Shown piece after piece: positions 3,655 to 23,603 of a DNA stretch of 32,932 bases. The DNA comes from Fidelibacterota bacterium (GTDB lineage: Bacteria > Fidelibacterota > Fidelibacteria > Fidelibacterales > DSDE01), in the NCBI GenBank assembly GCA_011049095.1, contig DSDE01000470.1, positions 1 through 32,932 of the forward strand, read 5' to 3'. Both the position numbers and the translations under genes were made by a program. Positions within the stretch are counted from its first letter, which is position 1. Each line of letters opens with the position of its first letter. The notes below the pieces were generated by a model. That model was not told the origin of the DNA, did no database searches, and saw only the letters and a list, made by a program, of their open reading frames with translations.

Positions 3655-3689
3655 TAATACTCCTGACGCTTTTCTCTGCATATCTTAGA

Positions 3690-5927: not shown

Positions 5928-6031
5928 CTCTTTCCTTTCCTTCGAATGGTTATTTTGCGTAATCAATTATTCTGAGTCATCCTCACTAGACAATTGCCTT
6001 TTATTCCAAATTCTTTCATTGTATAAATAAA

Positions 6032-6047: not shown

Positions 6048-6150
6048 TAAATATTTTTGTTTTCTGCCTTTCCCGAATATATATAAAGCAATAAATAGGA
6101 TTCTTTTGCCCAGGAATCGGCAATTATCTGTATATATTTAATAATTATGC

Positions 6151-6165
6151 TTATCAATTTGATAA
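6151..6165. promoter_or_regulatory. Perfect 7-1-7 palindrome TTATCAA-T-TTGATAA in the divergent promoter region (candidate activator or operator site)
   Basis: Read directly from the sequence. It lies about 105-120 bp upstream of the candidate -24 element on the GH3 side, a typical enhancer distance for sigma54 activators. It lies about 55-90 bp upstream of the possible starts of the sensor operon. Confidence 0.3.
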
Positions 6166-6252
6166 TAGTCAGAAAAGAGAAAAAGTTGTATTTTATGGTG
6201 AAAGGAAAACGTCGGAGAAGTGACGGTAAATAAAAAAGAAGAAAAGAATCCA

Positions 6253-9038: not shown

Positions 9039-9049
9039 AGGAATTAAGC

Positions 9050-10495
9050 TTGAGCGAAGAAAGAATTATCAATGTGCTGCTTATTGAAGATGAAGTTTTT
9101 GATGTGCAGAGAGTCAAAAATACTGTAAAACAAGCGCCCTATATACATATTTTGCATGTGGTGCCAAACGGGAATGAAAGTCTGGATATTCTTAAAAAAT
9201 GCCCGATTGATGTGGTGATTATGGATTTTCAGATTGCCGGCGGACTGCAAGGTGAGTCATTGATTCAGGCTATCAAAACCATCAACAGCCAGCTTCAGAT
9301 AATTGTTATCACAAAAATGACTATCAACCAGACGGACTTTAAATTTGCCAATTCGCTTATTGAAGCCGGCGCCTATTGGTTTTGCACCAAATATCCCGGC
9401 GACATCGAGGACTATATCTACCAGCCCACCGATTTTGTTCTCAGCATCAAAAATGCCTGGGAAAAAAAGAAGCTGGAGGAGGCACGAAGCCTCTCAGAAA
9501 ATCGTCTCAATAAAAATATTCAGGCTGTTTTGAAGGATAAAAAAATTATTGGCGAATCCCTTGTTATTCAAAAGATGATTCAGCGCATACATAAATTTGC
9601 CGCCACTCAGGCCAGCGTTCTTATCACAGGCGCTTCTGGAACGGGCAAGGAGCTGGTGGCCACACATATCCATTACAAGAGCCCCCGTAAATATGAGCCA
9701 TTTGTGACTGTCAATTGCGGCGGAATTCCGTCAGAGCTCCTCGAGAGTGAACTTTTTGGCTTTGAGAAAGGGAGTTTTACCGGCGCTGGACATAGCCGGG
9801 AAGGACTTTTTGAGCAGGCCGACGGTGGCACGATTTTTCTCGATGAAATCGGCGAGCTGCCACTTAATGCCCAGTCCAAACTGCTGCGAGTGCTGCAGGA
9901 AGGGGAAATTGACAAAATCGGTCGCCGCAAGCAATATAAAGTAGATGTGCGGGTGATAGCTGCGAGCAATAAAAAGCTTGCCGAACAGGTTAAGAAAAAA
10001 GCTTTTCGGGAAGACCTTTTCTATCGTTTAAATGTGCTGCAAATTGAAGTTCCGCCCCTGGCTGAGCGGCTTGATGATATTCCACTGCTGGTCAGCCATT
10101 TTCTAAATATCTTTGCCGGTGACTTTTTGGAGAATCTGCCGGTTTTGACGGAAGAGAGCATCCAAATTCTCAAAAGCTTTCACTGGCCTGGTAATGTTCG
10201 TCAGCTTCAGAATGTGGTGCAGAGGATACTCTTTTCCTATGAAGATGAGATAACGCCGGAGACAGTGCGCATTGCTATCGGTGTACCAGAAAAAGAGAAC
10301 CATATCGCATCCTTTCGGGAACAGTTTAATCCTGCCAATATTCAGATGCTCCGAGATATAGAGTCCCATTTTCGTCGGGAATATATACAGTTTGTCCGTA
10401 GCCATAGTGACACCGATGCCGAGGCAGCTCGTAAGCTGGGTATAGCGCCGCCCAATTTTCACCGAATGTGCAAAGAGCTGGGTATCAAAGGCTGA
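9050..10495 (+). CDS. Sigma54-dependent response regulator (NtrC family: REC + AAA+ + Fis-type HTH)
   Basis: TTG start with an AAGGA SD. The REC domain has INVLLIEDE and DVVIMDFQ. The AAA+ domain has Walker A (GASGTGKE), Walker B (IFLDEIGEL) and the sigma54-contact loop ELFGFEKGSFTGA (GAFTGA variant). The C-terminal HTH is AARKLGIAPPNFHRMCKELGI. Confidence 0.9.
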   Translation: MSEERIINVLLIEDEVFDVQRVKNTVKQAPYIHILHVVPNGNESLDILKKCPIDVVIMDFQIAGGLQGESLIQAIKTINSQLQIIVITKMTINQTDFKFANSLIEAGAYWFCTKYPGDIEDYIYQPTDFVLSIKNAWEKKKLEEARSLSENRLNKNIQAVLKDKKIIGESLVIQKMIQRIHKFAATQASVLITGASGTGKELVATHIHYKSPRKYEPFVTVNCGGIPSELLESELFGFEKGSFTGAGHSREGLFEQADGGTIFLDEIGELPLNAQSKLLRVLQEGEIDKIGRRKQYKVDVRVIAASNKKLAEQVKKKAFREDLFYRLNVLQIEVPPLAERLDDIPLLVSHFLNIFAGDFLENLPVLTEESIQILKSFHWPGNVRQLQNVVQRILFSYEDEITPETVRIAIGVPEKENHIASFREQFNPANIQMLRDIESHFRREYIQFVRSHSDTDAEAARKLGIAPPNFHRMCKELGIKG

Positions 10496-10512
10496 AAAGG
10501 ATAAGAGAGGGA

Positions 10513-10556
10513 AGCAAGCCAAATCACGACGGCAGACCTGGCTTGCTCTTTGTTTA
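10513..10556 (+). terminator. Candidate intrinsic terminator between convergent operons
   Basis: A 9-bp stem AGCAAGCCA (10513-10521) / TGGCTTGCT (10539-10547) is followed by CTTTGTTT. The 17-nt loop is long for a classic terminator. Confidence 0.45.
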
Positions 10557-10569
10557 AAATATTTTTAAA

Positions 10570-11829
10570 TCAAAAATCTGCTCTGATTTTTGCGTAGAGC
10601 ATATCATTATAATCGTACTGGCCAAACATACCATTATCGCCGGTGAAAATATTTGCACCCAGCGTGAAGCCTAGTCCGTTTCCAAAATCATAGCCAATTT
10701 TGGGACGCAGCAGCGCATCACCATCATTTATCCCGATATAAGTGAACAGCTCCAGCGATAAGGTTTCACGAAAGAAAGTTTCCCGCAGCATCAAAGTAGC
10801 CATATATTCGTATTCTTCTTTCATTAGTGATTCATCGTAATCGAGTATGGCTTCCTGTATAATCTGAGTGCTCATGTCGATGCCCAGAAGATTGAGATCG
10901 AAGGCGATAAGGCTGTGAATATAGTTTTTTTCCAAGCTAATGGAGGGAAGCGGCTGGGCTGATTGTACCAGGCTTTGCAATTGGTCAGGGGACATTGCAA
11001 GCTGAAGCCGTTTTCCCATATAAAGGGCGCTTTCTCCACGTAAAACCCATCCGCTTATGGGTTTATTAAAAGCGAAGCCGCCAATAGCGAGTCGGTGATG
11101 CCGCGGTTGAAGGGTTAGCTCAGGCCCATCTTGTGTAAGCTGAAGCGATTTTAGAGCATAAACAGGGTTATCATCCCAGGCATAGCCACCAATTAACTCA
11201 AAGTCTATAGTCGAGCTCATTAAGGCATAGCGTCCAAATATTTCACTATTTTCCAGGGAAGGAGCAATATTTTCCTGGTCATAGTCTATGATTGGCTCCA
11301 CTGGAAAGGGTTTTGTCGGCGCCCAGATGCTGCCGTCTTCCGGAAATTTAGTCGCTGTAAATTGGGGTACCCACACAAGGTCTAATTGCCCGCTGCCGCG
11401 GTAAAAGCTCACTTTGGCAGAGGTTACGCCGGAGCGGATTTCCTCAAAATCACGCAACAGAAATTCTTCCAGATTTTTTGGTGAAATAATATCGGTGATG
11501 AATACACCATCGGCTTTTCCCCAGATGATTTGCTGATGACCAATTCGCAGGTCAAAATTCTCTCGGTAATAGTCAAGATAGAGCTGACGAATTCCTATTT
11601 TCAGACTGTCGCTGCTGTTATACTGGTAGATATAGGGATTGGCTTTCCAGGCAAATTTGCCGTTGCCGTCGCTTAGTTCCAGATTTAGAGTATTCTGCAG
11701 GACGGCCTGGCTGCCGTCGTTGATGAGCCAGCCGCTGTAATGGCGGGCATATCCATTCAGGGATGGCATAGCCCAAAGCGCTGCAAAACTGATAAGGCTA
11801 AGGCTTATTCCCTTTAGAAATTGATTCAT
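10570..11829 (-). CDS. Outer-membrane beta-barrel protein (DUF1302-like), module A
   Basis: Signal peptide MNQFLKGISLSLISFAALWA. The C-terminal ...YAKIRADF ends in an aromatic residue, as OMPs typically do. The motif LRIGHQQIIWGKADG..ITDIISP resembles the GRQ..WG motif of DUF1302 barrels. The start overlaps the upstream stop (ATGA at 11826-11829). Confidence 0.65.
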   Translation of the reverse strand: MNQFLKGISLSLISFAALWAMPSLNGYARHYSGWLINDGSQAVLQNTLNLELSDGNGKFAWKANPYIYQYNSSDSLKIGIRQLYLDYYRENFDLRIGHQQIIWGKADGVFITDIISPKNLEEFLLRDFEEIRSGVTSAKVSFYRGSGQLDLVWVPQFTATKFPEDGSIWAPTKPFPVEPIIDYDQENIAPSLENSEIFGRYALMSSTIDFELIGGYAWDDNPVYALKSLQLTQDGPELTLQPRHHRLAIGGFAFNKPISGWVLRGESALYMGKRLQLAMSPDQLQSLVQSAQPLPSISLEKNYIHSLIAFDLNLLGIDMSTQIIQEAILDYDESLMKEEYEYMATLMLRETFFRETLSLELFTYIGINDGDALLRPKIGYDFGNGLGFTLGANIFTGDNGMFGQYDYNDMLYAKIRADF

Positions 11830-12593
11830 CGCACACCTCGTTGCATCATCCGTTCAGTAAAGATCCCGTCATCTACCGCTTGGTTAATCTTAATATTTTT
11901 CATTTCTATTCGAGTGCGGTGATCTTTTTGAACATTGTGCATTTCCATTATGGGGATAACCCAGTAACCGCTGATCTGTTCATATTTTTGAATATTCAGA
12001 GTTTTAAGATGTTCGCCATCCTCGTCATAAAATTCTTTTTTCAGGCCAATCCATTTATCTTTGATAATCCAGGTGATTGTATGGCTGTACATATTGTCAT
12101 CATCTTTGGGTCTGCTTTCGATGACGTAGCAATTTTCTCCATTCAGAGTTTCTTCCCGAAGGATTTTGTGATCATCTTTATCAGGATGCCGTTCGCCCAG
12201 GTCATCATAGGTAAAGTCACTTCCCATAAAATAATCGCTTTTGCTGTCAGAGGCGATGCGCTTAACTTTTTTTAGCGCCGGAAGATAAATCCACTGATCA
12301 TCATCCTGGCCTGAATCATAGCTCCAGTTCATAAAACTGGTATTACGCACATCGGCTGGCGCTTTGAAAAACATTATTTTTTTCTCATGGTCGCCGAAGT
12401 CTTTAAGAAATTGCTGTATCGTTCTTTCTCGTAGGTCTCCACGGCTATTGGTGAGGCTCATTGTGAGGTCAGATAGAATAGTTTGACCGGTGGGGCGCTC
12501 ATAGACTTTCATCATAATGCTGTGGCCATCGGGATTTTGTGCCCATAGATTGAGGGCTAAAAATATCGTCAGGCCAATGATTCGCTTTTTCAT
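11826..12593 (-). CDS. Secreted LolA-like protein (outer membrane lipoprotein-sorting protein family), module A
   Basis: Signal peptide MKKRIIGLTIFLALNLWA with no Cys, so it is soluble and periplasmic. Family hallmarks are WIYLPALKKVKRI and FMGSDFTYDDLG. Overlaps the MMPL-A stop (ATGA at 12590-12593). Confidence 0.8.
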   Translation of the reverse strand: MKKRIIGLTIFLALNLWAQNPDGHSIMMKVYERPTGQTILSDLTMSLTNSRGDLRERTIQQFLKDFGDHEKKIMFFKAPADVRNTSFMNWSYDSGQDDDQWIYLPALKKVKRIASDSKSDYFMGSDFTYDDLGERHPDKDDHKILREETLNGENCYVIESRPKDDDNMYSHTITWIIKDKWIGLKKEFYDEDGEHLKTLNIQKYEQISGYWVIPIMEMHNVQKDHRTRIEMKNIKINQAVDDGIFTERMMQRGVR

Positions 12594-14929
12594 TTTATCT
12601 CCTTTCTGTTTGTGAGTTCAGCAGATTCTTGTTCTGAAATCTGCTTTGTTTTGTTTTCATAATATTTTCGCAGCAATATATAGAGGACGCTCATTGTCGC
12701 CAGAAAACTCACCAGCATATTCAGTGAAATAAGCGCTCCTAAAGTGCGGTTAGGCGGAAAAACAGAAGCCAGCAGCACCATAAAGCCGGCGATGACCACC
12801 AAAGCATTGAATAAAATAGCGCGTCCGCTGCTGACCATTGTCTGCAGGCTGACCCATGGCAGATTTTTATTTTTTTCAAAAAATTTGCGGTATTTATCAA
12901 TAAAATGTACGGCATAATCAATGCCTATTCCCACAGCTATACTGGAAATCAGTGCGGTGGTGGTGCTAAGCGGTATATTTAAGAAGCCCATGACACCAAA
13001 GCTGATGATGGATGTGATGATGATGGGCAAAGCTCCCAGCAGGCCGATGGCGATGCTGCGAAACATCAGCGCCAGCAGTATAATCACAATTAAAACTGAG
13101 ATTAGCAGAGAGCTGATTTGTCCCTTGAGGATTAAATCGGTAAAAACATAGGCTTTATACCCTGAACCAGCATAATTAAGCTCGATATTCAGCGCGGCAA
13201 AGTCGCTGTGAAAGCTCTCAACACTCTCCATAGCCTGCTCCAGAGCTTTGCTGTTGTCGCTTTTTAGCTGAAATGTGATATTGGCTTTGGCATAATTATA
13301 GTCCACTAGTTTCCAGAGCTTATCCGGATCGCCGCTCATCTCATAAAGCAGCAGATATTGGGCAATCATATCTGATGACTCGGGAATTGTCTCCCAGGCT
13401 GGGTCGTCTGCATGCATGACCTTATTCATCCGTTTAAGATAGTCACTCAGCGAGAAACTGCTGCCTACCAGCGGGTTACGGCTTTCAGTGCTAGTCTGCA
13501 TCTTTTCCATAAGCAGCAGGGTGGCCGGCTGTTTCATAGCCTCAGGGCTTCCCTCAAGAATAACATTCAGGGTGCTGGTGCCTCCAAAGTGCTGGTTAAT
13601 AAAGGCATCTGTCTGAACGATATTGCTGTCTTTTTCAAACTTATCCAGAAAAGAGCTGTCAATCCAGATTCTTGATGCACCGTAAAAAGCAATCAGCAGG
13701 ATAACTGTAATGCTCATCATTATCAAAACCCGGTGAGAGGGCAGCCATTCGGTGAGATTGATAAGCCACGGAGCGCTTTTTTCACTATAGTCTTCGTCTT
13801 TTTTGGAATGTGTCGTTTTCCGGCTTCCAAAAAGCAAAATGCTGGCAGATAAAAAGAGAAGTGAAAGCAAGAGTTCTACAAATACCCCAAATGCCGTGAA
13901 AATCCCAAAATATTTGATGGGATAGACTTGTGAGCTAATGAGGGAGAAAAAACCTACCATCGTCGTAAAGGCCGCCATACTAACCGGGCTGACCATTGCG
14001 GTAATCATTGCGCTTACAGCCTGTTTTTTATCGTAATCAGGCTTATCCCGTCGAATGAGATTATAACTGTTTAACAAGTGGATGCCATAGGCTACACCAA
14101 TGGCGATAAGCATGACAGGTATCATTGTGCTGACTGAATAAAGCGGGATTCCAAGCCAACCCATCAGACCAAAAGTCCACACCGAGCTAAAAACCACGCT
14201 GAGCAAGATGAGCAAAGAGCCGATGAAACTGCGCAACAGCAGCAGTAAAACCACAAAGATGACAGCCACCACCAGCGGAACCATTTTTTTCATATCGGCA
14301 GGCATAAGCTTTGCGAGAGTCCCTTCAACGATTGGCGAGCCAGCTATGTACAACTTCTCGGGGCCTTCAAAGCTTTTTACCAGTGTGAGCAGCTCCTCAT
14401 AAAAAGCCTCGCTGAAAACATCGTCATTGATTTGAGCGATGATGAGCGCAGTGCGGCCATCTTTGCTCACTATGCGACTGTGAACCATTTCATTGGATTC
14501 TACGCTTTGCCGCAATTCCTGAAGCTTGATCTCACTTTTAGGAATCTTTTTGTAAAAAGCATTCACCTCCAGGCTGCCATCATTGCCCACAATATTGTCA
14601 GCCGTGTATAGCGATGTCACATCAGCAGGCTCGATCTGCTCCATCTTCTGCAGTGCACGGGTCAAATCTTTGATTTTTTCCAATGTTACACTGTTGTAAA
14701 TATTTTCCGGCGCTTCTATAGCGATAATAATTCCGTCCTTGATATTAAACCAGCTTTCGGCTTCTTCACTATACATAAAAGCCGGATGGGATTTGGGCAT
14801 GTACTCATCCAGGTCGGTCTCCATCCGAATATTTTCCTTCATTTGATAAAAGAAAAATGCGCTCACCGCCAAGGTCACAATGAGAATGCTCATCGGATAC
14901 TTTAGCAGGCCATTTAAATACTTGTTCAT
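12590..14929 (-). CDS. MMPL / RND-superfamily inner-membrane transporter (HpnN/MmpL-like), module A, 779 aa
   Basis: Two repeats, each of one TM helix, a large periplasmic loop and a five-TM bundle. The second-half motif is GIGIDYAVH and the first-half counterpart is AIGVAYGIH. An AGGAGA SD precedes the ATG at 14927-14929. Confidence 0.9.
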   Translation of the reverse strand: MNKYLNGLLKYPMSILIVTLAVSAFFFYQMKENIRMETDLDEYMPKSHPAFMYSEEAESWFNIKDGIIIAIEAPENIYNSVTLEKIKDLTRALQKMEQIEPADVTSLYTADNIVGNDGSLEVNAFYKKIPKSEIKLQELRQSVESNEMVHSRIVSKDGRTALIIAQINDDVFSEAFYEELLTLVKSFEGPEKLYIAGSPIVEGTLAKLMPADMKKMVPLVVAVIFVVLLLLLRSFIGSLLILLSVVFSSVWTFGLMGWLGIPLYSVSTMIPVMLIAIGVAYGIHLLNSYNLIRRDKPDYDKKQAVSAMITAMVSPVSMAAFTTMVGFFSLISSQVYPIKYFGIFTAFGVFVELLLSLLFLSASILLFGSRKTTHSKKDEDYSEKSAPWLINLTEWLPSHRVLIMMSITVILLIAFYGASRIWIDSSFLDKFEKDSNIVQTDAFINQHFGGTSTLNVILEGSPEAMKQPATLLLMEKMQTSTESRNPLVGSSFSLSDYLKRMNKVMHADDPAWETIPESSDMIAQYLLLYEMSGDPDKLWKLVDYNYAKANITFQLKSDNSKALEQAMESVESFHSDFAALNIELNYAGSGYKAYVFTDLILKGQISSLLISVLIVIILLALMFRSIAIGLLGALPIIITSIISFGVMGFLNIPLSTTTALISSIAVGIGIDYAVHFIDKYRKFFEKNKNLPWVSLQTMVSSGRAILFNALVVIAGFMVLLASVFPPNRTLGALISLNMLVSFLATMSVLYILLRKYYENKTKQISEQESAELTNRKEIK

Positions 14930-14945
14930 TTTGTCTCCTATATTT

Positions 14946-14961
14946 GTTATCGTTAGCTAAC
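14946..14961. promoter_or_regulatory. Operator-like palindrome GTTATCGTTAGCTAAC (GTTA-N8-TAAC) between tetR-A and MMPL-A
   Basis: Contains the perfect 10-bp palindrome GTTAGCTAAC. It matches the inverted reading of the site at 15575-15590 (GTTATCGGTCGTTAAC) at 13 of 16 positions. Confidence 0.4.
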
Positions 14962-14980
14962 ATATTCATGGTAAAAAATT

Positions 14981-15562
14981 TTACTTAATCATCTGTTTTA
15001 GGGTGAGGATAATTGCCCGTACGCGGCTGATCATGTCAAAGCGAAAGCCAAGCCGCCGCCATTCGGAAACGATTTTGTGAATCAGTCCAACGATGATTAA
15101 AACCAAATCTGCTGCCGGAAGCTCTTGGCGAATCTGAGCTTCTGCCTGGGCCGCTTCAATAAGTCCTTGCAGATAGTTTTGACGCCGCAGAATAATCTCC
15201 TGCAGTTTTGCTGCGGCTGCTGAATCCGGCGGAAAGATTTCATCGTTGAAAAGAACGGCTGTCATCTCTTGATTTTTTTCTAGATATTGAACCATTCGAA
15301 TGATGAATTGATAGAGCCGCTCATCTGCCCTGGCAATCTTGTCCAGCTCCTGTTTCATATTTAAAAATTGATCGGATAAAGTGTCGAGAATGGCAAATAT
15401 AATAGCTTCTTTATTCTGAAAATGGCGGTAGATGGCCGGTTCGCTGATACCCACATTTTTTGCTAGCTCCCGAATCGAAAGATTGCTGTAGCCGCGAAAA
15501 TGAATGATGCGTAGCGCCTCCTGCCTTATCTGTTTCTGCCGTTCTTCACTTGTTCGTCGCAT
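14981..15562 (-). CDS. TetR/AcrR family transcriptional regulator, module A
   Basis: ORF trimmed to the ATG at 15560-15562, which has a GGAGG SD. The TetR_N HTH is GYSNLSIRELAKNVGISEPAIYRHFQNKEAI. Confidence 0.9.
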   Translation of the reverse strand: MRRTSEERQKQIRQEALRIIHFRGYSNLSIRELAKNVGISEPAIYRHFQNKEAIIFAILDTLSDQFLNMKQELDKIARADERLYQFIIRMVQYLEKNQEMTAVLFNDEIFPPDSAAAAKLQEIILRRQNYLQGLIEAAQAEAQIRQELPAADLVLIIVGLIHKIVSEWRRLGFRFDMISRVRAIILTLKQMIK

Positions 15563-15574
15563 TTTACCTCCACA

Positions 15575-15619
15575 GTTAACGACCGATAACATAATACGAA
15601 ATTTATTTTCTCTTTGCAA
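15575..15619 (-). promoter_or_regulatory. tetR-A sigma70-type promoter with overlapping operator-like palindrome
   Basis: The minus strand reads TTGCAA (15614-15619), a 17-nt spacer, TATTAT (15591-15596), then immediately GTTATCGGTCGTTAAC (15575-15590). The imperfect palindrome GTTA-N8-TAAC therefore covers the expected transcription start. Confidence 0.5.
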
Positions 15620-15680
15620 ATATTATTTTGCTTCTTTTTTAAAAAAAAATTCATAAACTGTACTTAGAAAGGGAAAAATA

Positions 15681-16151
15681 ATGAAGCGAGAAAAATTTCT
15701 GGAGATTTTGAGCTGGGAGCATCATGATGGCCTGGTGATTGCGCTGCGTCTGGAAAAAGGGCTGGAGAATGGCACCGAGTTGTGGCTTCTCAAAGATTAT
15801 TTGCTGGATAAATGGAATCATGCGCTGAAAGACCATTTTCAAAGTGAAGAGCGCTATCTCATTCAACCGGCGCAATATTATGAGCCCGATTCTGCGCCCA
15901 TTCAGAAGATGATGCAGCAGCATGAAGTGATAACAAAGCTGGTGGAAACGATTTTAGATAAGGCAAACAAAGCGAACATTGAGAAATTCATAGCCGCCCT
16001 GCGGCAGCATATTCAGTTTGAGGAAAAAGAGCTCTTTCCCTATCTTGAATCGCTCCTGGAACCCGAGCTAAAGGATAAAATCGCCCAATGCCTCAGCATT
16101 CATTATGTAAAAGGTGATAAGGGTTGGGACCCTGAGTTCTGGAAAACGTAA
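15681..16151 (+). CDS. Hemerythrin-like (HHE cation-binding domain-like) protein
   Basis: Helical His/Glu pattern: WEHHDG, DHFQSEERYL, QQHEVI, RQHIQFEEKELFPYLE. No signal peptide. SD-like AAAGGGAAA upstream. Confidence 0.55.
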   Translation: MKREKFLEILSWEHHDGLVIALRLEKGLENGTELWLLKDYLLDKWNHALKDHFQSEERYLIQPAQYYEPDSAPIQKMMQQHEVITKLVETILDKANKANIEKFIAALRQHIQFEEKELFPYLESLLEPELKDKIAQCLSIHYVKGDKGWDPEFWKT

Positions 16152-16241
16152 TTAATTCCCGGCTTATCAGATCAATTCTAATTCTAAAAATTTCTGAAAT
16201 AATCGTAAGGATCATCGGCGTTTTATATATTTCCGCTGGAA

Positions 16242-16298
16242 ATTGATTTTGTTATAATCAATAAGCTGAATCATAATAAACAGTTAGACGACTGTTTA
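16242..16298 (+). promoter_or_regulatory. Extended -10-like element inside an inverted repeat, followed by a second inverted repeat
   Basis: TGTTATAAT (16250-16258) lies inside the IR ATTGATT (16242-16248) / AATCAAT (16256-16262). It is followed by an 8-bp IR TAAACAGT (16277-16284) / ACTGTTTA (16291-16298) with a 6-nt spacer. Confidence 0.3.
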
Positions 16299-16324
16299 GA
16301 AAAATAAATATTTTATGCATAATG

Positions 16325-16371
16325 TTGAAAAGGCTGAAGATAATCTATATATTATGACTGACCAGTCGGTC
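16325..16371 (+). promoter_or_regulatory. tetR-B sigma70-type promoter with overlapping palindromes
   Basis: TTGAAA (16325-16330), a 17-nt spacer, TATATT (16348-16353). These are followed by GACTG-AC-CAGTC (16356-16367) overlapping GACC-AGTC-GGTC (16360-16371), just upstream of the GAGGAGGAG SD. Confidence 0.5.
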
Positions 16372-16391
16372 GGAAAGAAAGAGGAGGAGAA

Positions 16392-17015
16392 ATGACACCC
16401 ATAGCAAAAGATGCACAGAAACGGGAGCGGATCATTGCGGCAGCGATGGAGGTTTTTGCCGCTGAGGGTCTGAGCAAAGGAACCATTGCCTCGGTGGCTT
16501 CCCGGGCCGGCATTGGCAAAGGGACCGTTTATGAGTATTTCCGCAGCAAGGATGAGCTTTTTCAGGCTATGCTGGAATACTTTTTCGCTGGAATGATAGC
16601 GCAGTGGGAAGCGCTTATTCAGAGTCCATTGGCCTATAAAGATAAGCTGAATCTTCTCATAGACAGTACTTTCGACTTTATGGATTTTGACAACCTCCAA
16701 GCCATGAGTACCTGGCGAATGGTTTTTGAGATTATTCTCTATGCACTGCGGCAGCCGGAAGGGGGAGAGAGCGCCATTAACCTGGCAGAAAGTTTCCGGT
16801 CGCTCATCAGCGCCTTTGAGCCGCTGCTGGCTGAAGGAGTGGAGCGGGGACTCATTAAGCCTATGGAGACCCGCGATCTGGCTTTTCTCCTTTTTGCGGC
16901 GCTGGATGGGGTGGGACTCCATTTTTTCCTGCAAAAGGGAAATTATGATGCTGGCAGACTGAAGTCGTTGCTGAGGCAAATATTGGTTACCGGAATCTTT
17001 AAGGAGGCTTTGTAA
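16392..17015 (+). CDS. TetR/AcrR family transcriptional regulator, module B
   Basis: The TetR_N HTH is GLSKGTIASVASRAGIGKGTVYEYFRSKDELF. Strong SD. The stop overlaps the next start (TAATG at 17013-17017). Confidence 0.9.
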   Translation: MTPIAKDAQKRERIIAAAMEVFAAEGLSKGTIASVASRAGIGKGTVYEYFRSKDELFQAMLEYFFAGMIAQWEALIQSPLAYKDKLNLLIDSTFDFMDFDNLQAMSTWRMVFEIILYALRQPEGGESAINLAESFRSLISAFEPLLAEGVERGLIKPMETRDLAFLLFAALDGVGLHFFLQKGNYDAGRLKSLLRQILVTGIFKEAL

Positions 17016-17818
17016 TGAAAACAAACTGTATCAACAGAGAAAAACTTGTGGGCATTCCTTTGGGCAGAATAATATTACTCCTTTTTTTTGTTTGGGCAGC
17101 GATTCCGGGACAGCTTCAAGGCGCTGAACCAGATGCAGCGGCTCTTTTAGACCATGTGATATTCACAATGAATCCGGAAAATGTCAAGGCCATCATGACC
17201 CAGACCATTACGAGCAGCTCCGGCGACGAGCGGACATTTCGCTACGAAAGTGAGAGCGGCGGCGCGGGGGAGTTTTCGCTGATGCGCTATTTGGAGCCAA
17301 GCCGGGTGAAAGGGAATGCCCTGCTGCTGACCGATTTTACAGATAATATCTGGAGCTACAATGCTCGCACAAACCGTGTGCGGCGACTGGCCAGCAATGC
17401 CAAAAAGATGAAATTTGAAGGAAGCGATTTCACCTATGAAGATATGGGCAGCGCTAAAGTCTGGAAAGAAGATTTTACGGTCTCGATGGGTGAAAAAGAC
17501 AGACTTCAGTCTGAACTCTGTCAGCAGCTCATTTTGCAGCCCAAAGCCCGTGCCAATTCCAGCTATTCAAAAATTATTCTATGGCTTCGGGAAACTGATC
17601 ATTTTCCTATCCAACTCGATTATTATGACAAAAATGAGACTTTCCTCAAAAGCCTATATCTTGAAGATATTCGCTTGGTAGAAGGTGTTTTAACGCCATT
17701 TACTATGAGAATGCATCATCATCTGGAAAACAGTGAGACAGTGATGGGCTATGAGTCGGTGACCTATGATGTGAATTTCCCCAAAAATTATTTCAGAGAG
17801 GGGAATCTGAAAAAATGA
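17015..17818 (+). CDS. Secreted LolA-like protein, module B
   Basis: AAGGAGG SD. Signal peptide ...IILLLFFVWAAIPGQLQGA with no Cys. Family hallmark FEGSDFTYEDMG. Confidence 0.8.
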   Translation: MKTNCINREKLVGIPLGRIILLLFFVWAAIPGQLQGAEPDAAALLDHVIFTMNPENVKAIMTQTITSSSGDERTFRYESESGGAGEFSLMRYLEPSRVKGNALLLTDFTDNIWSYNARTNRVRRLASNAKKMKFEGSDFTYEDMGSAKVWKEDFTVSMGEKDRLQSELCQQLILQPKARANSSYSKIILWLRETDHFPIQLDYYDKNETFLKSLYLEDIRLVEGVLTPFTMRMHHHLENSETVMGYESVTYDVNFPKNYFREGNLKK

Positions 17819-19194
17819 AGAAAGTCAAAATGAGACATAAAATACCAACCGGTGAAAAGAGGAGCCTTTTAAGGAAGGAGCAGATTTTGTCTGCTGTAAA
17901 AGTATTCCTCCGTTTTCACTATTTTGCTAAAAATCCCGCCGCAGCCACCCTGCCCATCTTCTTGCTATTCATAAATACTCTGCTTTTCCCAACGCTGCTC
18001 AAAGCTGATTGCTTTGGCTATTTTGAAAGTGAAGGCGACGGTCTGCAGTCAAAATCGAGTGAATATCTCTTTGGTTACCATAAGCTGCGTCTCGATTTTC
18101 AGACTCAGCCTGAAGCAAACCTAAAAATAAGCGCCAACCTGACAGCCAAAAAATATTGGGGCAAGCGCACCATGAATCTAATGGATTTTTTGCCTGATAA
18201 ACTGCTTGAGCCTTTTCTTAACAGTTCATTTATGTATCCTGGCGAGCCTTTATCTTTTACTATGGCTGATACGATTTATCTGGATAACTTTTATCTCGAC
18301 GCCTATGCGGGAAATCTTCATTTAACTTTGGGAAGGCAGCAAATTTCTCCCGGTGTGGGCTATGCCTGGAATCCAACAGACATTTTTAACCGCAAGGACC
18401 CGATGGACCCCACCTATGAGCAGTCCGGCGCAGATGCCATCGCTTTGGAATTGCCTGTTGGAGCGTATCTGACGCTTAGTGCGATACTCCAGCCAAAAGA
18501 GAGCTGGGATACGACAGTTCGATATGGAAAAGGAAAATTCAGTTTTAGCGCTTTTGATTTTAGTTTGGTCTATGGCTATTTTCAGCGTTTATTTACCCAT
18601 CTGGAATGGCCGCTCATTTTTATGGGAATGACGGAATCAGTTCAAAACCGCGAATTGCTGGGTTTTTCATTTTTCACGGACCTTGCCGGACTGGGGTTTT
18701 GGCTTGAAGCAGCCCGCTGCTATAATCGTCTTGCTGGGTATCAATATTTTGATTTTTCCGACGCCAATCGGTTTTATGAAGACCCATATCTGGCAAATGA
18801 CGGCCACTATTGGCAGCTCCTTATTGGCGCTGATTATACCAGCAATTCCTCCTTGCATATCCTGGCCGAGTATTTTTACAATGGATTTGGCAGTAAGAAA
18901 GACCAAGTTAATTTCAATCACTACCTGGACTATCTTGACGGCAAAACACTTACTTTGAACCAGAATTATCTATTTTTGTCGTTGCTTTATCCATGGGGCG
19001 ATTCTGTGACGGCTGGAATTTTTACTTTGGCGAATCTGGATGATCAAAGCTTTTTGCTAAATCCTCAATTGATATTTCAATCTGGAAACAATCTGGAGCT
19101 GAGTTTGATGCTATCCGCCGGATTGGGTAATGCTGAAAGCGAAATGGGGCTGCAAAAATACGGCGGCAGACTAAGGCTAAGAGCATGGTTTTGA
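17815..19194 (+). CDS. Outer-membrane beta-barrel protein (DUF1302-like), module B
   Basis: ATGA overlap with the upstream gene. Hydrophobic signal region LPIFLLFINTLLFPTLLKA. Motif LTLGRQQISPGVGYAWNPTDIFN. The C-terminal ...RLRLRAWF ends in an aromatic residue. The exact start is uncertain because the N-terminal region is long. Confidence 0.65.
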   Translation: MKKVKMRHKIPTGEKRSLLRKEQILSAVKVFLRFHYFAKNPAAATLPIFLLFINTLLFPTLLKADCFGYFESEGDGLQSKSSEYLFGYHKLRLDFQTQPEANLKISANLTAKKYWGKRTMNLMDFLPDKLLEPFLNSSFMYPGEPLSFTMADTIYLDNFYLDAYAGNLHLTLGRQQISPGVGYAWNPTDIFNRKDPMDPTYEQSGADAIALELPVGAYLTLSAILQPKESWDTTVRYGKGKFSFSAFDFSLVYGYFQRLFTHLEWPLIFMGMTESVQNRELLGFSFFTDLAGLGFWLEAARCYNRLAGYQYFDFSDANRFYEDPYLANDGHYWQLLIGADYTSNSSLHILAEYFYNGFGSKKDQVNFNHYLDYLDGKTLTLNQNYLFLSLLYPWGDSVTAGIFTLANLDDQSFLLNPQLIFQSGNNLELSLMLSAGLGNAESEMGLQKYGGRLRLRAWF

Positions 19195-19244
19195 CGGAGT
19201 GATGGGAATCATTAAAATTCTTCAATAAAAAAAAGGAGGCGCTA

Positions 19245-21992
19245 ATGCGTGAAAAATTTTTACGGACTATTGGCAAAATAGCAGCAGAGCATACCTGGAA
19301 ACTAAGTGGACTGATTTTGATGCTGACAATATTTTTTGGTGCAATGGCTGGGCAACTAAAAATGAATATGAATTTGACGGGACTGCTGCCCCAGGATGAT
19401 CCTATGGTTGAGGAATTCAATAAAATTTACCATCATTTTGATGGCGCAAATACGGTATTCATCGTGGTGAAGGGCGATACTAAGAAAATGATTGCCTATG
19501 CCGAGCGTATTTCTCCGATAATTTTGGAGCTGGAATCATGGATCGAATCCAATGGATCCGAGCAGGTGAAAGAGTCGCATTTTAAACTGCAGTCCAGCGC
19601 TGCCGAGAAGGGCAGAAAAGCTTATTATCAGCGGGTTGATTATAAGCAAGCCGTTGATTTTATAAAAAATCATGGCCTGATGCTCATACCTGAGGAAGAA
19701 TTGACGAATATTGAAGAGCTGTTTTATGATTCCAATCTTTTACCTTTTTTAATCAATCTGAATAATAGCTTGGAAAAAGAGTATATTCAATCAAATATCA
19801 AACTCAGTACTATGCAGAAAGAGCGCAATGCCGTGGCTTTTCTTGATGGTATCGAGAGCTTTACTGAAGCTTTGCAGCAAAGCCTTGTTTCGGAGAAAGA
19901 CTTTGAGGACAATGCCATTGCAGCAGCCGATGCTATCACCCTTGGCAGCCCCTATCTGATGTCACCGGACCGTTCGATGCTCCTGGTGATGGCCACACCC
20001 AATTTCAATATCATGAATATGGACTACTATACCCCGGCTATCACCGGGCTTGAGGAACTGGTAAAATCTCTTGCTTCGGATATGGAGCTTGAGGCAGGCT
20101 TAACCGGAAGTATTGTACTGAGTCGGGATGAGATGGCGGCCAGCACAGAAGATTCCATGACTTTGACGCTTCTGGCGCTGCTGGCTGTATTTATTATGTT
20201 TGTCATCACTTTTAGAATGCTATCGGCGCCGCTGCTGGCCATAATCAATCTGATTATCGGTATAGTCTGGGCAATGGGTGTTAGCTGGTTTTTGGTGGAT
20301 AGCCTGAACATGTTTACAGCAATGATGGCGGTGATTCTGGTGGGGCTGGGGATTGATTTTTCCATTCATATCATTTCAGTTTATTCGGAATTACTGTTAA
20401 AGGGTGAATCGCCTCACGATGCCATCATCAATACGCTGGAAAAAGTCGGCACCGGCATAATTACTGGCGCTATTACCACAGCTATGGCTTTTCTCACGCT
20501 GCTTATTGCCCGCTCTGCCGGCATCAAGGAATTTGGTCTAGTCAATGGCGTGGGGCTGATCGTGATTATGATGGCCACACTATTGACGATGCCAACGCTC
20601 CTGATGCTGCGGGAAAAATATCGTCTGTGGCGGGGAAAAGAACAAAATCGCTATCGTGACCTCAGTTTTCAGTCGGTGGGCGCTTTGTCGCTGTGGATTC
20701 ATTCCCACCGAAAATTCAGTTTTCTATTCATTGTTTTGATCACGCTGGGCCTTGGGGCTTTTATTCCCAGCTTGACGATGGATTATAATTATCTCAATAT
20801 GGAGCCGAAAGGACTGGAGTCTATACTTCTCAATGAAGAGATTATTGAGAAATTTAATATGAGCAGCGATATGACTATGATGACAGCTTCATCTCTGGCA
20901 GAAAATGCTGCCCTGACCGAAGCCGCCAAGAAGAAATCCTCCATTTCTTTTGTAGAATCAATTAGCGATTATATTCCCGATGAAAAGAGCCAAGAAAAAC
21001 GGCGGGAGAAAGTTTCTGTTTTGCGTGAAAAGATGGCCTCAGCTCAAACGGGCGCTGAAATGAAGCCAAACGAGCGGATACTTTTTTGGGATGAGCTGAT
21101 TCGCCTGGAAGCCAATATTATCGAGCTGCAAGATATGGCTTTTCTCGGCGGGCAGGATATGGTAGATGAAAAAGCGAGCCGTCTGGTGGGTAATCCGGAC
21201 CGACCCGAGCTGCAAGGCATACTGACTGCCCTTATTGCAAGTCTGGAAGGGGACATTCCCCTTAAAAAAATCAATGCATTTAACAAGGTTTTCAGTGAGC
21301 ACTACCGGAAAAATGTTATCAAAATGGCTAATCCGGAAACGATTAGCCTAGAGATGCTGCCAGAAATCATTCATGATAAATATATCAGTGAAGATGACAA
21401 AAGCTATCTGCTGACCCTCTATCCTAAAGGAAATGTCTGGCATTTTGATTATCTGGAAGCCTTTACCAATGATGTTTTAGATATCAGTCACAGCATCGTG
21501 GGTACGCCGCCTATGTTTTATTTTCTGCTGAAAATCATTGGCGAAGATGGCAAGCGGGCGCTCTTTTTTACAATTTTGGTGGTTTTCCTGACGCTGCTCA
21601 TTGATTTTCGGTCGCTGCGCTTTGCCCTTTTTGCTATGATGCCCCTCTTTTTTGGGTTCATCTGGATGACGGGCTTTATGGCGTTGACTGGCATTCAGCT
21701 AACCCTTTTGAATATCATCGCGCTGCCGCTGATCGTAGGCATTGGCATTGATGATGGAGTCCATATTATCCATCGCTACCGGTTGGAAGGGGAAGCCGCC
21801 ATCGGATCGGTATTTGCTTCTACTGGAAAAGCGGTAATAATCACGTCATTTACTACGATGCTGAGCTTTGGCAGTCTGGTTTTTGCCACCTATCGTGGAT
21901 TTGGCAGCATGGGCCTGGCGCTTTTTATAGGCGTGGGAATGTGTCTGCTGGCCAGCCTGATAGTCTTGCCGGCGCTCTTGAAACGGGTATGA
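19245..21992 (+). CDS. MMPL / RND-superfamily inner-membrane transporter, module B, 915 aa
   Basis: AAGGAGG SD. 12-TM RND-like topology with two large periplasmic loops. The motifs are GLGIDFSIH in the first half and GIGIDDGVH in the second half. Confidence 0.9.
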   Translation: MREKFLRTIGKIAAEHTWKLSGLILMLTIFFGAMAGQLKMNMNLTGLLPQDDPMVEEFNKIYHHFDGANTVFIVVKGDTKKMIAYAERISPIILELESWIESNGSEQVKESHFKLQSSAAEKGRKAYYQRVDYKQAVDFIKNHGLMLIPEEELTNIEELFYDSNLLPFLINLNNSLEKEYIQSNIKLSTMQKERNAVAFLDGIESFTEALQQSLVSEKDFEDNAIAAADAITLGSPYLMSPDRSMLLVMATPNFNIMNMDYYTPAITGLEELVKSLASDMELEAGLTGSIVLSRDEMAASTEDSMTLTLLALLAVFIMFVITFRMLSAPLLAIINLIIGIVWAMGVSWFLVDSLNMFTAMMAVILVGLGIDFSIHIISVYSELLLKGESPHDAIINTLEKVGTGIITGAITTAMAFLTLLIARSAGIKEFGLVNGVGLIVIMMATLLTMPTLLMLREKYRLWRGKEQNRYRDLSFQSVGALSLWIHSHRKFSFLFIVLITLGLGAFIPSLTMDYNYLNMEPKGLESILLNEEIIEKFNMSSDMTMMTASSLAENAALTEAAKKKSSISFVESISDYIPDEKSQEKRREKVSVLREKMASAQTGAEMKPNERILFWDELIRLEANIIELQDMAFLGGQDMVDEKASRLVGNPDRPELQGILTALIASLEGDIPLKKINAFNKVFSEHYRKNVIKMANPETISLEMLPEIIHDKYISEDDKSYLLTLYPKGNVWHFDYLEAFTNDVLDISHSIVGTPPMFYFLLKIIGEDGKRALFFTILVVFLTLLIDFRSLRFALFAMMPLFFGFIWMTGFMALTGIQLTLLNIIALPLIVGIGIDDGVHIIHRYRLEGEAAIGSVFASTGKAVIITSFTTMLSFGSLVFATYRGFGSMGLALFIGVGMCLLASLIVLPALLKRV

Positions 21993-22015: not shown

Positions 22016-22588
22016 TTATCCGAATGTTTTTTTTGTAATCATTGTCAAAAATTCACTCCTGGTTTCCGGATCGTCGTGAAACTCTCCCAAAACGGCAGAG
22101 GTAGTGGTATAGCTGTTCTTTTTCTCGACGCCCCGCATCTGCATACACATATGCTGTCCTTCTAAAACTACTGCCACACCAATGGGGTTCAGGGCTTGCT
22201 GAATGGCGTCGGCTATCTGCTGGGTGATTCTTTCCTGCACCTGCAGCCGCCTGGCATACATTTCCACAATTCGGGGGATTTTGCTGAGGCCGATGACTTT
22301 TCCATTGGGAATATAGCCAACATGCGCCATGCCAAAAAATGGCAGCATATGGTGCTCACACAAACTGAAGAAATCAATATCCCGAACGACAACCATACCT
22401 TTGGAATTTTCGTTGAAAATAGCATCACCAACCACATCCTCTAAGGTGAGATCATAGCCTCGGGCAAGAAAATCCCAAGCTCGGCTCACGCGTTCAGGTG
22501 TTTTCAGCAGCCCCTCTCGATTGGGGTCTTCGCCAATTTCGGTGAGCAAATCGTAGGTAATTTTTTCCAATTTTTTTTTATTGACCAT
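22016..22588 (-). CDS. folE: GTP cyclohydrolase I (FolE type I)
   Basis: [64 protein letters not shown]. The start is set at the ATG at 22586-22588, which has an AAGGA SD. This gives 190 aa, a typical length. Confidence 0.9.
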
Positions 22589-23009
22589 GCTCATTCCTTT
22601 CATAGATGGCGCCCAGCTCAAAGCTCTCAAAAACTTCCACCCGAAAAAGCTCAACGTCGGGGCCAAATTTATTTTCCAGATTCTTAAACAGGTAGCGTGC
22701 AATATTCTCGGTGGTGGGAATATTTCCGCGAAAAAAAGCTATCTCTTTTTCCAGATGGCAGTAATCCAGGGGGTCTGTAATCATCTCCTGCAGTACTTTT
22801 TCCACATCAAAGAAATTGATCAGCATACCGGTTTGGGGGTCAAATTTTCCCCGCAGACCGATGATGGCTTCAAAATTATGGCCATGAACCTTGGAGCATT
22901 TTCCGTATTTTGCCCAATTTTCTTCAGGAGAAAGGCTGGCCTCATTGAAGCTGTGTGCCGCTGCAAAACGGACTTTGCTAAAGAGCTCGACCTCATGTCT
23001 ATTGGCCAC
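22578..23009 (-). CDS. COG0720 paralogue with QueD-type Cx3HGH motif (6-carboxytetrahydropterin synthase-like), atypical Asp-His region
   Basis: [18 protein letters not shown] (Cys-x3-HGH), TTENIA. The usual LDH motif reads LDYCHL here. GTG start. Overlaps both neighbouring genes by 11 nt. Confidence 0.75.
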
Positions 23010-23406
23010 GATAGACGACCCAATTGTTTTCTGTCTCCCAGAGCTTGATTTCGTAGAGCATATCTTCAGGGAGGAATTTCTGCAGCTCGTCCCAGACTTT
23101 CAGAGCAATGTTTTCTGCGGTGGGTATGACACCCCGAAGAAAGTCCACATCATAGTTCAGGTGTTTATGGTCCAGCTTATCCACTAGCTTTTTATTTACG
23201 GTGGATTTCAGTTCTTTCAAATCTATAATCATACCAGTGGCTTCCGGCACCTCGCCTTTGACCGTGACTTCCAAAGTATAATTGTGGCCATGGCCATTAT
23301 CCCAACTGCATTTCCCGTAGGTTTCCAGATTCTGCTCATTGCTGAAACTGGGATTGCGCAGGACGTGGCTGGCGGCAAAGGTAAAGCGTTTGGTCAAATA
23401 AATCAT
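22999..23406 (-). CDS. 6-pyruvoyltetrahydropterin synthase, eukaryote-like PTPS type (Cx5HGH)
   Basis: Start at the ATG at 23404-23406 with a GAGGA SD. FTFAASHVL, GKCSWDNGHGHNY (Cys-x5-HGH), KLDHKHL, TAENIA and [13 protein letters not shown] closely parallel the mammalian PTPS motifs GKCNNPNGHGHNY / LDHKNL / ETDNNIVVYKGE, quoted from memory. Confidence 0.85.
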   Translation of the reverse strand: MIYLTKRFTFAASHVLRNPSFSNEQNLETYGKCSWDNGHGHNYTLEVTVKGEVPEATGMIIDLKELKSTVNKKLVDKLDHKHLNYDVDFLRGVIPTAENIALKVWDELQKFLPEDMLYEIKLWETENNWVVYRGQ

Positions 23407-23414
23407 AATTTTCC

Positions 23415-23603
23415 TCACTCTATTTCAGGCTGGATTTCCAGTCCCAGCCGTATCATTTTCTCCTGAAGGGCAAAGCGTTCCCGGCAATCTTTACAGACCA
23501 GAAGTCCCGGCGCCACAGGGTCCTCTTTTAAATCTTCAAGCCCGCCACAGTAATTACATTCATTGCCAAACACAAATTCCTCGTTCATATCTTCTTTATT
23601 CAT
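23415..23603 (-). CDS. Small (62 aa) putative zinc-ribbon protein
   Basis: Two CxxC pairs (CNYC ... CKDC). It lies 8 nt upstream of the PTPS gene on the same strand. No strong SD. Coding status rests on ORF position and the Cys pattern only. Confidence 0.4.
   Translation of the reverse strand: MNKEDMNEEFVFGNECNYCGGLEDLKEDPVAPGLLVCKDCRERFALQEKMIRLGLEIQPEIE

Follow-up and report, generated by a model that had tools for sequence, protein, structure and literature searches.

Why should two complete sets of the same four envelope genes lie back to back on one stretch of bacterial DNA, and what might they be for? The question is raised by a contig from a Fidelibacterota bacterium (GenBank assembly GCA_011049095.1, contig DSDE01000470.1; all 32,932 nucleotides analyzed, hereafter the window). 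Module A on the minus strand and module B on the plus strand each encode a TetR-family regulator, an MMPL-type resistance-nodulation-division (RND) pump, a LolA-like periplasmic carrier and an outer-membrane beta-barrel. An initial annotation, made from the letters of the sequence, took the modules for an old duplication kept side by side, giving two specificity variants of one uncharacterised envelope system. Our analysis leads to a different view: the region holds two members of one class of envelope-spanning transport cassette, juxtaposed fairly recently and proposed to work as pump-carrier-barrel exporters. We put the probability of this reading at about 0.62. It builds on the domain identities of the parts, the fold and homology of the two barrel families, the conservation of both four-gene units in their respective orders, an operator motif, and the finding that the adjacency of the two modules is not conserved.

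Each module is a conserved unit. Type A loci were collected from genomes with a profile of barrel-A (80 loci, 54 of them with enough upstream DNA to judge) and type B loci from metagenomes with a profile of barrel-B (80 loci). The MMPL, LolA-like and barrel genes lay on one strand and in the order seen in the window in 54/54 informative type A loci, with a tetR gene in front in 50/54. Complete type A loci span about 10 phyla, with hosts among the Bacteroidales, Calditrichota, KSB1, Cloacimonadota, Aminicenantes, Latescibacterota, Zixibacteria, Neomarinimicrobiota, Spirochaetota, Chitinivibrionales and Chlorobiota; the type also occurs in cultured Roseimarinus sediminis and in a metagenome-assembled genome (MAG) assigned to Caldithrix abyssi. 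For type B, the full tetR-LolA-barrel-MMPL order was found in 46 loci, mostly from Marinimicrobia, and most of the others end at contig edges; three divergent type B loci show an A-like gene order. The four-gene association that the initial annotation had singled out for a survey of other genomes is therefore kept in both types, each in its own order.

Within the window, the corresponding parts of the two modules are only distantly related. The LolA-like proteins share 26% identity (68 bits) and the pumps 22-26% over their transmembrane (TM) bundles only (about 95 bits); the barrels have one motif in common by BLASTP, their homology being detected by profile only, and the two TetRs share the helix-turn-helix (HTH) alone (14 bits). 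The motif pairs previously picked out by eye (GSDFTYDD/GSDFTYED and LRIGHQQIIWG/LTLGRQQISPG) were both recovered in these pairwise alignments, which the initial annotation had called for and which agree with its statement that this is not a recent tandem copy. With no pair more than 26% identical, a recent duplication or an assembly artefact is ruled out.

The relationship to cassettes elsewhere is much closer. Median scores of the parts of A loci in other phyla against the A proteins of the window were 337 bits for LolA, 903 for MMPL, 397 for the barrel and 88 for TetR, vs. 70, 67, 0 and 22 bits, respectively, against the B proteins. The B loci gave the converse scores, the sole exception being the second cassette of a KSB1 locus (L019). 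LolA-like-A scored 214 bits with the Porphyromonas protein, 138 with the structure 3BK5 and 120 with 4Z48, all higher than its 68 bits with LolA-like-B, and for MMPL-B the solved HpnN (127 bits) is a nearer match than MMPL-A.

The adjacency of A and B, on the other hand, is rare. An A cassette was found within 10 kb of 0/80 B-type loci, and a B-like cassette beside 1/80 A-type loci, namely L019. Besides the window, A-B adjacency was seen only there, in tandem, and in a mirror arrangement at L164, a locus collinear with window positions 6131-16530 and about 85% identical to them in nucleotides; the hemerythrin gene and the first 46 codons of tetR-B are present there, which gives L164 the same mirror layout. 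The arrangement is missing from two close relatives. In L161, whose barrel-A is 70% identical, tetR-A faces an Rrf2-DUF1858/DUF2249-hemerythrin-NorB cluster (L161:1269-6113) and no module B is present in the 6 kb on the tetR-A side; in L163 (barrel-B 51% identical), no module A is present in the 8.5 kb on the tetR side. This rarity, and the absence from both relatives, argue for a recent juxtaposition. In L019 itself (a KSB1 MAG), the B-like cassette (L019:11782-15394) lies directly downstream of the A cassette on the same strand, and an Hcp gene and two ArsP-like permease genes are inserted between MMPL-A and LolA-A.

The rival explanation, a single ancient local duplication retained side by side as two specificity variants, has in its favor that both modules are built from four parts of the same types, with homology demonstrable for three of the pairs, and that the KSB1 genome also has neighboring A and B cassettes. 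It has to contend with the lack of adjacency in 80/80 B loci, in 79/80 A loci and in the 70% relative, with scores 4-13x higher between each part and its counterpart in other phyla than between neighbors, and with MMPL-B being nearer to HpnN than to MMPL-A, TetRs that share the HTH only and operators that differ. We consider this explanation highly improbable, and the old duplication proposed initially is not supported by the comparison. The most explanatory reading is that two old cassette lineages were set back to back by a fairly recent rearrangement. The comparisons indicate that A and B diverged long ago into separate lineages, and that each is passed on whole, together with its own TetR and operator. 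The gene between the modules encodes a hemerythrin 69% identical to the one in the NorB (nitric oxide reductase) cluster of L161; as a candidate module part it was rejected, since almost no other A or B locus has it and its L161 homologue belongs to the Rrf2-NorB cluster. The gene probably survives from a nitric-oxide-stress cluster and stayed behind when module B came to lie here.

The regulators bear out this separate inheritance. Both carry a TetR_N domain (PF00440; 1.8e-13, 50.5 bits for tetR-A and 2e-16, 59.9 bits for tetR-B), followed by TetR_C_4 in tetR-A (1.3e-6) and TetR_C_6 in tetR-B (9e-7), and a tetR-B homologue is co-inherited with the B cassette in 48/48 loci. The best NCBIfam model for both proteins is the acyl-CoA-responsive FadR of Bacillus, far under its cutoff, a weak hint as to substrate. 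Candidate operators were found by cross-locus comparison; a generic inverted-repeat search of the divergent region returned A/T-rich palindromes only. In 44/48 B-type loci, the 150 nt upstream of tetR contain the motif GACCGAC-NN-GTCGGTC (up to 2 substitutions), which has 8 occurrences in 620 kb elsewhere and is present exactly once in the window, beside a promoter-like sequence (Table 1). A different palindrome, GTTAGT-N4-8-ACTAAC, occurs near tetR in 34/47 A-type loci, vs. 15 occurrences in 684 kb elsewhere. In the window, the candidate A-type site is GTTAGCTAAC, a tentative assignment because its half-sites have zero spacing. Each cassette type thus appears to have its own operator palindrome, conserved for B and tentative for A in the window. 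A TetR_N regulator with a palindrome at its promoter is the configuration of a TetR-autoregulated operon, and binding is predicted.

At least nine type B loci (L102, L103, L108, L109, L111, L117, L121, L127 and L130) contain an identical perfect hairpin, CCCCTCAGAATTCAATCTGAGGGG, 110-166 nt upstream of the tetR-B homologue; it is not found in the window. This hairpin could terminate the gene upstream of it, or else be conserved as a regulatory element or a repeat.

The two pumps resemble different RND subfamilies. Both match PF03176 (1e-48 in two matches for MMPL-A, 6e-43 for MMPL-B) in domain scans that covered window open reading frames (ORFs) of at least 120 aa. The best NCBIfam match of MMPL-A is HAE3 (TIGR00921; 266 bits, under the cutoff of 351.9), a model with which MMPL-B scores 211 bits. 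MMPL-B matches best, and over its full length, the HpnN-like model TIGR03480 (365 bits, under the cutoff of 752; 116 bits for MMPL-A); it scores 207 bits with NF052374 (cutoff 1100; 56 bits for MMPL-A), and its nearest solved structure is HpnN (5KHN, 127 bits). The size difference of 136 aa noted initially (915 vs. 779 aa) was confirmed from the ORFs and reflects subfamily, HAE3/AmeD-like pumps being about 780 aa and HpnN-like pumps about 880-915 aa long. Each pump keeps the Asp-containing proton-relay motif GxGxD in one or both of its TM bundles: MMPL-B has it in both (GLGIDF, GIGIDD) and MMPL-A in the second (GIGIDY), which supports proton-driven pumping. ACR_tran matches were sub-cutoff (20-27 bits vs. 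28), and no HlyD/membrane-fusion protein (MFP) or outer-membrane efflux protein (OEP) domain was detected in any scanned window ORF, so that a tripartite pump of the HAE1 kind is not encoded by these ORFs.

Given the resemblance of MMPL-B to HpnN, could module B transport hopanoids or sterols (polycyclic triterpenoids) in the manner of HpnN/BstABC, with periplasmic and outer-membrane partners of its own? Full-length alignments to the HpnN (365 bits) and BstA (226 bits) models and the nearest structure would fit this idea. The scores, however, fall far short of the equivalog cutoffs (752, 1100 and, for BstA, 1400); the window contains no hopanoid biosynthesis genes, and genes for squalene, hopene or sterols are missing from the surroundings of module B there and in four annotated B contexts. 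In addition, its partners are LolA-like and DUF1302-like proteins, not BstB or BstC. We therefore regard a hopanoid or sterol transporter as very unlikely.

The carriers fall into the PF17131 (LolA_like) family, with 1.1e-67 and 227.7 bits for LolA-like-A and 1.5e-44 and 152.3 bits for LolA-like-B (cutoff 30). Both have a type-I signal peptide (SPI) and no lipobox, as befits the PF17131/LolA3 family; PF07044 (DUF1329) covers only about 70/368 profile positions in the carriers, so that they are not full-length DUF1329 proteins. LolA-like-A matches the P. gingivalis LolA3 structure (PDB 9TP6) at E 2.6e-62 and about 42% identity, which identifies it as a clear homologue of that protein (PGN0947), while LolA-like-B matches 4Z48, 3BK5 and 9TP6 at about 1e-16 to 1e-18.

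LolA3 itself belongs to this cassette class, judging from the context of its gene in Porphyromonas. The P. gingivalis protein was recovered at 100% identity on contig L170, where its gene directly follows an MMPL gene that was overlooked by tblastn and identified by Pfam. In P. macacae (L171) the cassette reads TetR-MMPL-two small genes-LolA3-DUF1302. Compared with those of the window, the cassette of Porphyromonas is divergent (about 26% identity for both MMPL and barrel), and P. macacae has two extra genes: between MMPL and LolA3, L171:6954-7990 holds a methyltransferase gene and an ORF of 136 aa. In this species the DUF1302 gene is followed by two genes for ABC exporters (L171:10076-13556).

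Published work on LolA3 has treated it as a Lol paralogue and does not mention genomic context (PMC13103446, PMC11885536). Could the cassettes then be an alternative lipoprotein-sorting route, with the RND pump in place of LolCDE, LolA3 as chaperone and the barrel as receptor or insertase? The carrier has the LolA fold and is labeled 'outer membrane lipoprotein-sorting protein' in sources; moreover, Flavobacterium johnsoniae is viable without all of its LolA and LolB proteins, which requires that it has further routes (PMC11885536). LolA3 possesses a hydrophobic groove; neither the arginine of LolA nor the leucine of LolB is present in it, and its binding to LolB is only weak (PMC13103446), and deletion of lolA3 in F. 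johnsoniae left gliding, type IX secretion (T9SS) and surface lipoprotein display unaffected (PMC11885536). Pfam and NCBIfam gave no canonical LolA or LolB signal (no PF03548 match; 17.7 bits vs. a cutoff of 100 for NCBIfam LolA1), and the modules contain no LolCDE or LolB genes. A TetR-repressed cassette of patchy distribution is also unlike a housekeeping sorting system. Lipoprotein sorting is thus a very improbable function for these cassettes.

The barrels required profile and structure comparisons. Barrel-A scores weakly with DUF1302 (PF06980; 18.4 bits, cutoff 23.2), but its family numbers more than 1,100 homologues, and the PF06980 annotation is carried by almost every one listed, from Bacteroidota, KSB1, Marinimicrobia, Cloacimonadota, Calditrichota and Krumholzibacteriota. 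Barrel-B has no Pfam or NCBIfam match. Its family, mostly from Marinimicrobia and without a Pfam domain, is far narrower: a hidden Markov model scan of 1.84 billion representatives found 233 sequences at E<=1e-30 and 4,246 at E<=1e-3. A comparison of the two families with hhalign gave a probability of 98.2% (E 5e-14, 317 columns), and these profiles place them as homologous. Outer-membrane barrels usually end in Phe; barrel-A has an SPI signal peptide and the C-terminus ...RADF, and barrel-B a signal peptide and a terminal Phe. Alignment-based AlphaFold2 (AF2) models were confident, all-beta barrels (pLDDT, the predicted local distance difference test score, of 80.4 for barrel-A and 78.6 for barrel-B), which Foldseek placed among 16-18-stranded outer-membrane barrels (AlgE, OprD/Occ, MOMP; best TM-scores 0.5-0.58). 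The best matches of barrel-A were MOMP, AlgE and Occ, and the top match of barrel-B was AlgE. According to the models, both are DUF1302-type barrels of roughly 18 strands, an assignment made for barrel-A through the PF06980 annotation of its homologues, for barrel-B through hhalign and for both through the AlgE/Occ-like fold. A profile search of the PDB returned no solved DUF1302 structure; the same AlgE/Occ-like fold has been published for a Pseudomonas DUF1302 protein, together with a DUF1302-DUF1329 complex predicted at an interface score (ipTM) of 0.84 (PMC13499233).

How might these parts work together? The compartments of the parts are predicted from signal peptides and TM pump domains. 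The TetR repressor would bind a palindromic operator at its own promoter (on the basis of conservation for B, tentatively for A), and a hydrophobic ligand would release it and switch on the operon. The proton-driven MMPL/HAE3-type RND pump would take up a hydrophobic or amphiphilic molecule from the inner membrane or the periplasm and hand it to the soluble LolA3-type carrier, with its hydrophobic groove. The carrier would then deliver this substrate to the DUF1302-type barrel, which would insert it into, or pass it through, the outer membrane. Overall, the cassettes would likely act as inducible exporters, driven by protons, that bring a hydrophobic or lipid substrate to the outer membrane or through it; we infer the direction of transport, the hand-over, TetR derepression and the class of substrate. 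The substrates of types A and B most likely differ, and are probably lipids, fatty-acyl compounds or other hydrophobes. Type A combines an HAE3-like pump with a canonical short DUF1302 barrel and is widespread in the FCB (Fibrobacterota-Chlorobiota-Bacteroidota) group and neighboring phyla; type B combines an HpnN-like pump with a divergent barrel and is found mainly in Marinimicrobia.

The direction of transport is the point at which a rival carries most weight. Characterised RND/MMPL pumps (MmpL3, HpnN, AcrB) move substrates outward. In addition, deletion of the related AmeABCD system of Castellaniella defragrans raised both toxicity and dye accumulation, with lower monoterpene tolerance and more Nile Red in the cells (PMC6394551). 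For these two reasons we favor export. The cassettes could instead capture hydrophobic growth substrates (long-chain alkanes, fatty esters, terpenes), with the barrel admitting them and the LolA-like protein ferrying them inward: P. putida DUF1302/DUF1329 mutants are defective on Tween 20 and butyl stearate (bioRxiv 10.1101/2020.07.04.188060), an MMPL-LolA fusion and a porin-like gene of Thalassolituus oleivorans are induced on the n-C28 alkane (PMC6304351), and relatives are located in aromatic or terpene catabolic islands (10.1101/072470; PMC6394551). No hydrophobe-catabolic genes, however, flank the modules in the window or in eight annotated contexts. Together with the outward direction of known pumps and the AmeABCD phenotype, this makes uptake unlikely in our estimation.

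Several observations weigh against our proposal of recently juxtaposed exporters. The growth-substrate phenotypes of the relatives (Tween 20, fatty esters, alkanes) fit uptake equally well (10.1101/2020.07.04.188060; PMC6304351). The first-bundle motif of MMPL-A has Ala in place of Asp (AIGVAYGIH). The window contains no match to the A-type operator at up to 1 substitution, only the degenerate palindrome described above. Lastly, deletion of F. johnsoniae lolA3 (Fjoh_0605), a gene that may or may not lie in such a cassette, gave no phenotype under the assays used (PMC11885536).

Some clues to substrate come from genes that accompany the cassettes in other genomes. Many Bacteroidales type A operons hold a gene for an outer-membrane protein of about 300 aa with an HHSNGQ motif and a weak match to phospholipase A1 (PF02253; 18-20 bits vs. 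a cutoff of 27). It usually lies between the LolA-like and DUF1302 genes (L012:8660-9559, L005:9015-9914, L006:5050-5952, L054:8942-9898, L074:5752-6654) and in two loci between the MMPL and LolA-like genes (L015:8153-9073, L037:8209-9096). A metallophosphoesterase gene accompanies this outer-membrane phospholipase A (OMPLA)-like gene in L004, L006 and L012. The presence of an OMPLA-like gene in these operons may point to a lipid substrate. Genes for patatin-like phospholipases lie directly 3' of a type A cassette (L162:10040-12214) and near a type B cassette (L169:5409-6395). The neighbors of B cassettes differ from locus to locus, and the recurrence of phospholipase-like genes is a weak substrate signal. 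In L167 (4214-5325), a reverse transcriptase (RVT_1) and an HTH gene, which may be a retron-like or defence element, lie just upstream of a type B cassette.

The layout of the locus is summarized in Table 1, with genes taken from a six-frame ORF list and domains from the Pfam and NCBIfam scans. The coordinates given initially for all eight genes and the hemerythrin gene were reproduced exactly in this list, and ORFs and domain scans agreed with the same four part types, permuted order and tight spacing in both modules.

Table 1. Genes and regulatory elements of the two modules, with positions in the window
Feature	Position	Strand	Remarks
barrel-A	10570-11829	(-)	419 aa; DUF1302-family outer-membrane beta-barrel
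LolA-like-A	11826-12593	(-)	255 aa; periplasmic LolA3-type carrier (PF17131)
MMPL-A	12590-14929	(-)	779 aa; HAE3-like RND inner-membrane transporter
Palindrome GTTAGCTAAC	14952-14961	.	between tetR-A and MMPL-A; weak candidate for an A-type TetR site
tetR-A	14981-15562 (likely ATG start); ORF to TTG 15619	(-)	TetR regulator, YsiA/FadR-like C-terminal domain
Hemerythrin-domain gene	15681-16151	(+)	PF01814, 4e-12; sits between the modules
Candidate sigma-70-like promoter, module B	16325-16353	(+)	TTGAAA-17-TATATT; consensus match only
Putative B-type TetR operator palindrome GACTGACCAGTCGGTC	16356-16371	.	directly 3' of the -10-like box, 21 nt before tetR-B
tetR-B	16392-17015	(+)	TetR-family regulator
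LolA-like-B	17015-17818	(+)	267 aa; PF17131 periplasmic carrier with SPI signal
barrel-B	17815-19194	(+)	459 aa; remote DUF1302 relative; start codon uncertain
MMPL-B	19245-21992	(+)	915 aa; HpnN-like RND inner-membrane transporter

Two of the start codons were probably mis-set by the longest-ORF rule. A GGAGG ribosome-binding site precedes the ATG at 15562 and homologues are 193 aa long, so that the start of tetR-A is most likely this ATG, not the TTG at 15619. The two tetR genes would consequently start about 830 bp apart, and not about 0.75 kb as first proposed; the divergent layout, with the hemerythrin gene alone between the modules, stands. For barrel-B, the candidates are 17815, 17830 and a TTG at 17887, the choice being ambiguous because remoter homologues lack the first 45-60 residues. 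Of the ATGA or TAATG overlaps reported initially, those at 12590-12593, 11826-11829 and 17013-17017 can be read directly, whereas the one at 17815-17818, though present in the sequence, is real only with the longest-ORF start of barrel-B. Such overlaps would be consistent with stoichiometric complexes within each module, as was suggested.

Beyond the modules, the window contains cellulases, regulators and pterin genes. MMPL-B is directly followed, on the other strand (22016-23418), by folE (GTP cyclohydrolase I) and two tandem paralogues of the PTPS (6-pyruvoyltetrahydropterin synthase)/QueD family (22578-23009 and 22999-23418) that overlap by 11 nt, forming a small pterin/queuosine-precursor cluster. 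On the other side, genes for a solute-binding protein, a histidine kinase and a sigma-54 response regulator (6220-10495) abut barrel-A, a position kept in L164. Cellulase genes of glycoside hydrolase families GH3, GH5 and GH9 (656-5966 and 25851-28400), one with a T9SS sorting tail, lie near these regulators, and a MotA/ExbB-family gene followed by two consecutive MotB/OmpA-like genes occupies 29684-31887. The T9SS tail and the cellulases, with the taxonomy of the B-type matches and the best A-type genome match, point to a probable host within the Marinimicrobia (Marinisomatota).

The mirror arrangement that drew attention to this locus means little in itself, being a chance local outcome of genome rearrangement; the cassettes matter more. 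DUF1302 and LolA3-type proteins are widespread and without demonstrated biochemical function, and papers of 2025 and 2026 left the role of LolA3 open. Their conserved context yields a testable hypothesis, namely RND-driven, carrier-mediated delivery of a hydrophobe to an outer-membrane barrel, for which there are an operator of defined sequence and organisms in culture that carry the cassette (Porphyromonas, Caldithrix abyssi, Roseimarinus sediminis). A more far-reaching idea, which we offer as a tentative possibility, is that TetR-MMPL-LolA3-DUF1302 cassettes are distinct and widespread shuttle-type trans-envelope lipid exporters of the FCB group and its relatives, in which LolA3 carries lipid and not lipoprotein, connecting an RND pump with a porin-like barrel by which the lipid is inserted or released. 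If so, LolA3 and DUF1302 would gain a function, the cassettes would be a third RND-driven export architecture, beside the MFP/TolC duct and the stand-alone MmpL/HpnN pumps, and type B would represent a second, previously unrecognised barrel family for the same task, one outside Pfam coverage.

The description of the system as uncharacterised applies to these cassettes, but relatives do exist. AmeABCD of C. defragrans consists of a DUF1302 protein (AmeA), a DUF1329 protein (AmeB), a Ycf48/BNR-like protein (AmeC) and an HAE3 RND pump (AmeD) (PMC6394551), and DUF1302-DUF1329-BNR-RND genes are cofit in Shewanella, Kangiella and Pseudomonas, where export of an envelope component was proposed (bioRxiv 10.1101/072470). 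The window cassettes have in common with these sets an RND pump of the MMPL/HAE3-like type, the LolA-superfamily periplasmic protein and the DUF1302 barrel, the lack of an MFP or TolC-type partner, and the association with hydrophobic compounds. They differ from AmeABCD in their short PF17131 carrier (255-267 aa vs. about 450 aa for DUF1329), smaller barrels (about 390-420 aa vs. about 600 aa), a cassette-specific TetR in place of a LuxR or AraC regulator, hosts in the FCB group and Marinimicrobia and not in Proteobacteria and, for type B, an HpnN-like pump and a barrel unrecognised by Pfam. No BNR/PSII_BNR match (Ycf48-like, COG4447) was found in the scanned window ORFs or in the eight Pfam-annotated contexts. 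The cassettes are thus a compact, BNR-less, TetR-controlled variant of the DUF1302/LolA-superfamily/HAE3-RND class, and could help to define the minimal set of parts of AmeABCD-type systems.

Two better known kinds of pump provide further points of reference. The HpnN proteins of Burkholderia multivorans and Rhodopseudomonas palustris share with MMPL-B an architecture of about 880-915 aa and align with it over the full length; HpnN is described as acting without dedicated periplasmic or outer-membrane partners (PMC6394551), whereas MMPL-B has both, a sub-cutoff score and no hopanoid context. HAE1 pumps of the AcrAB-TolC type are also TetR-repressed, proton-driven RND systems with an outer-membrane partner that are proposed to span the envelope. 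In the cassettes, however, a soluble LolA-fold carrier and a porin-like barrel take the place of the MFP and the TolC channel, which suggests transport by a shuttle and not through a continuous duct. A parallel to such a hand-over is found in T. oleivorans, where proteomics detected the induction on n-C28 alkane of TOL_3187/TOL_3188, an MMPL-LolA-like fusion followed by a porin-like protein (PMC6304351). Pump and carrier are separate genes in the window cassettes; their union there in one polypeptide argues that the two act together.

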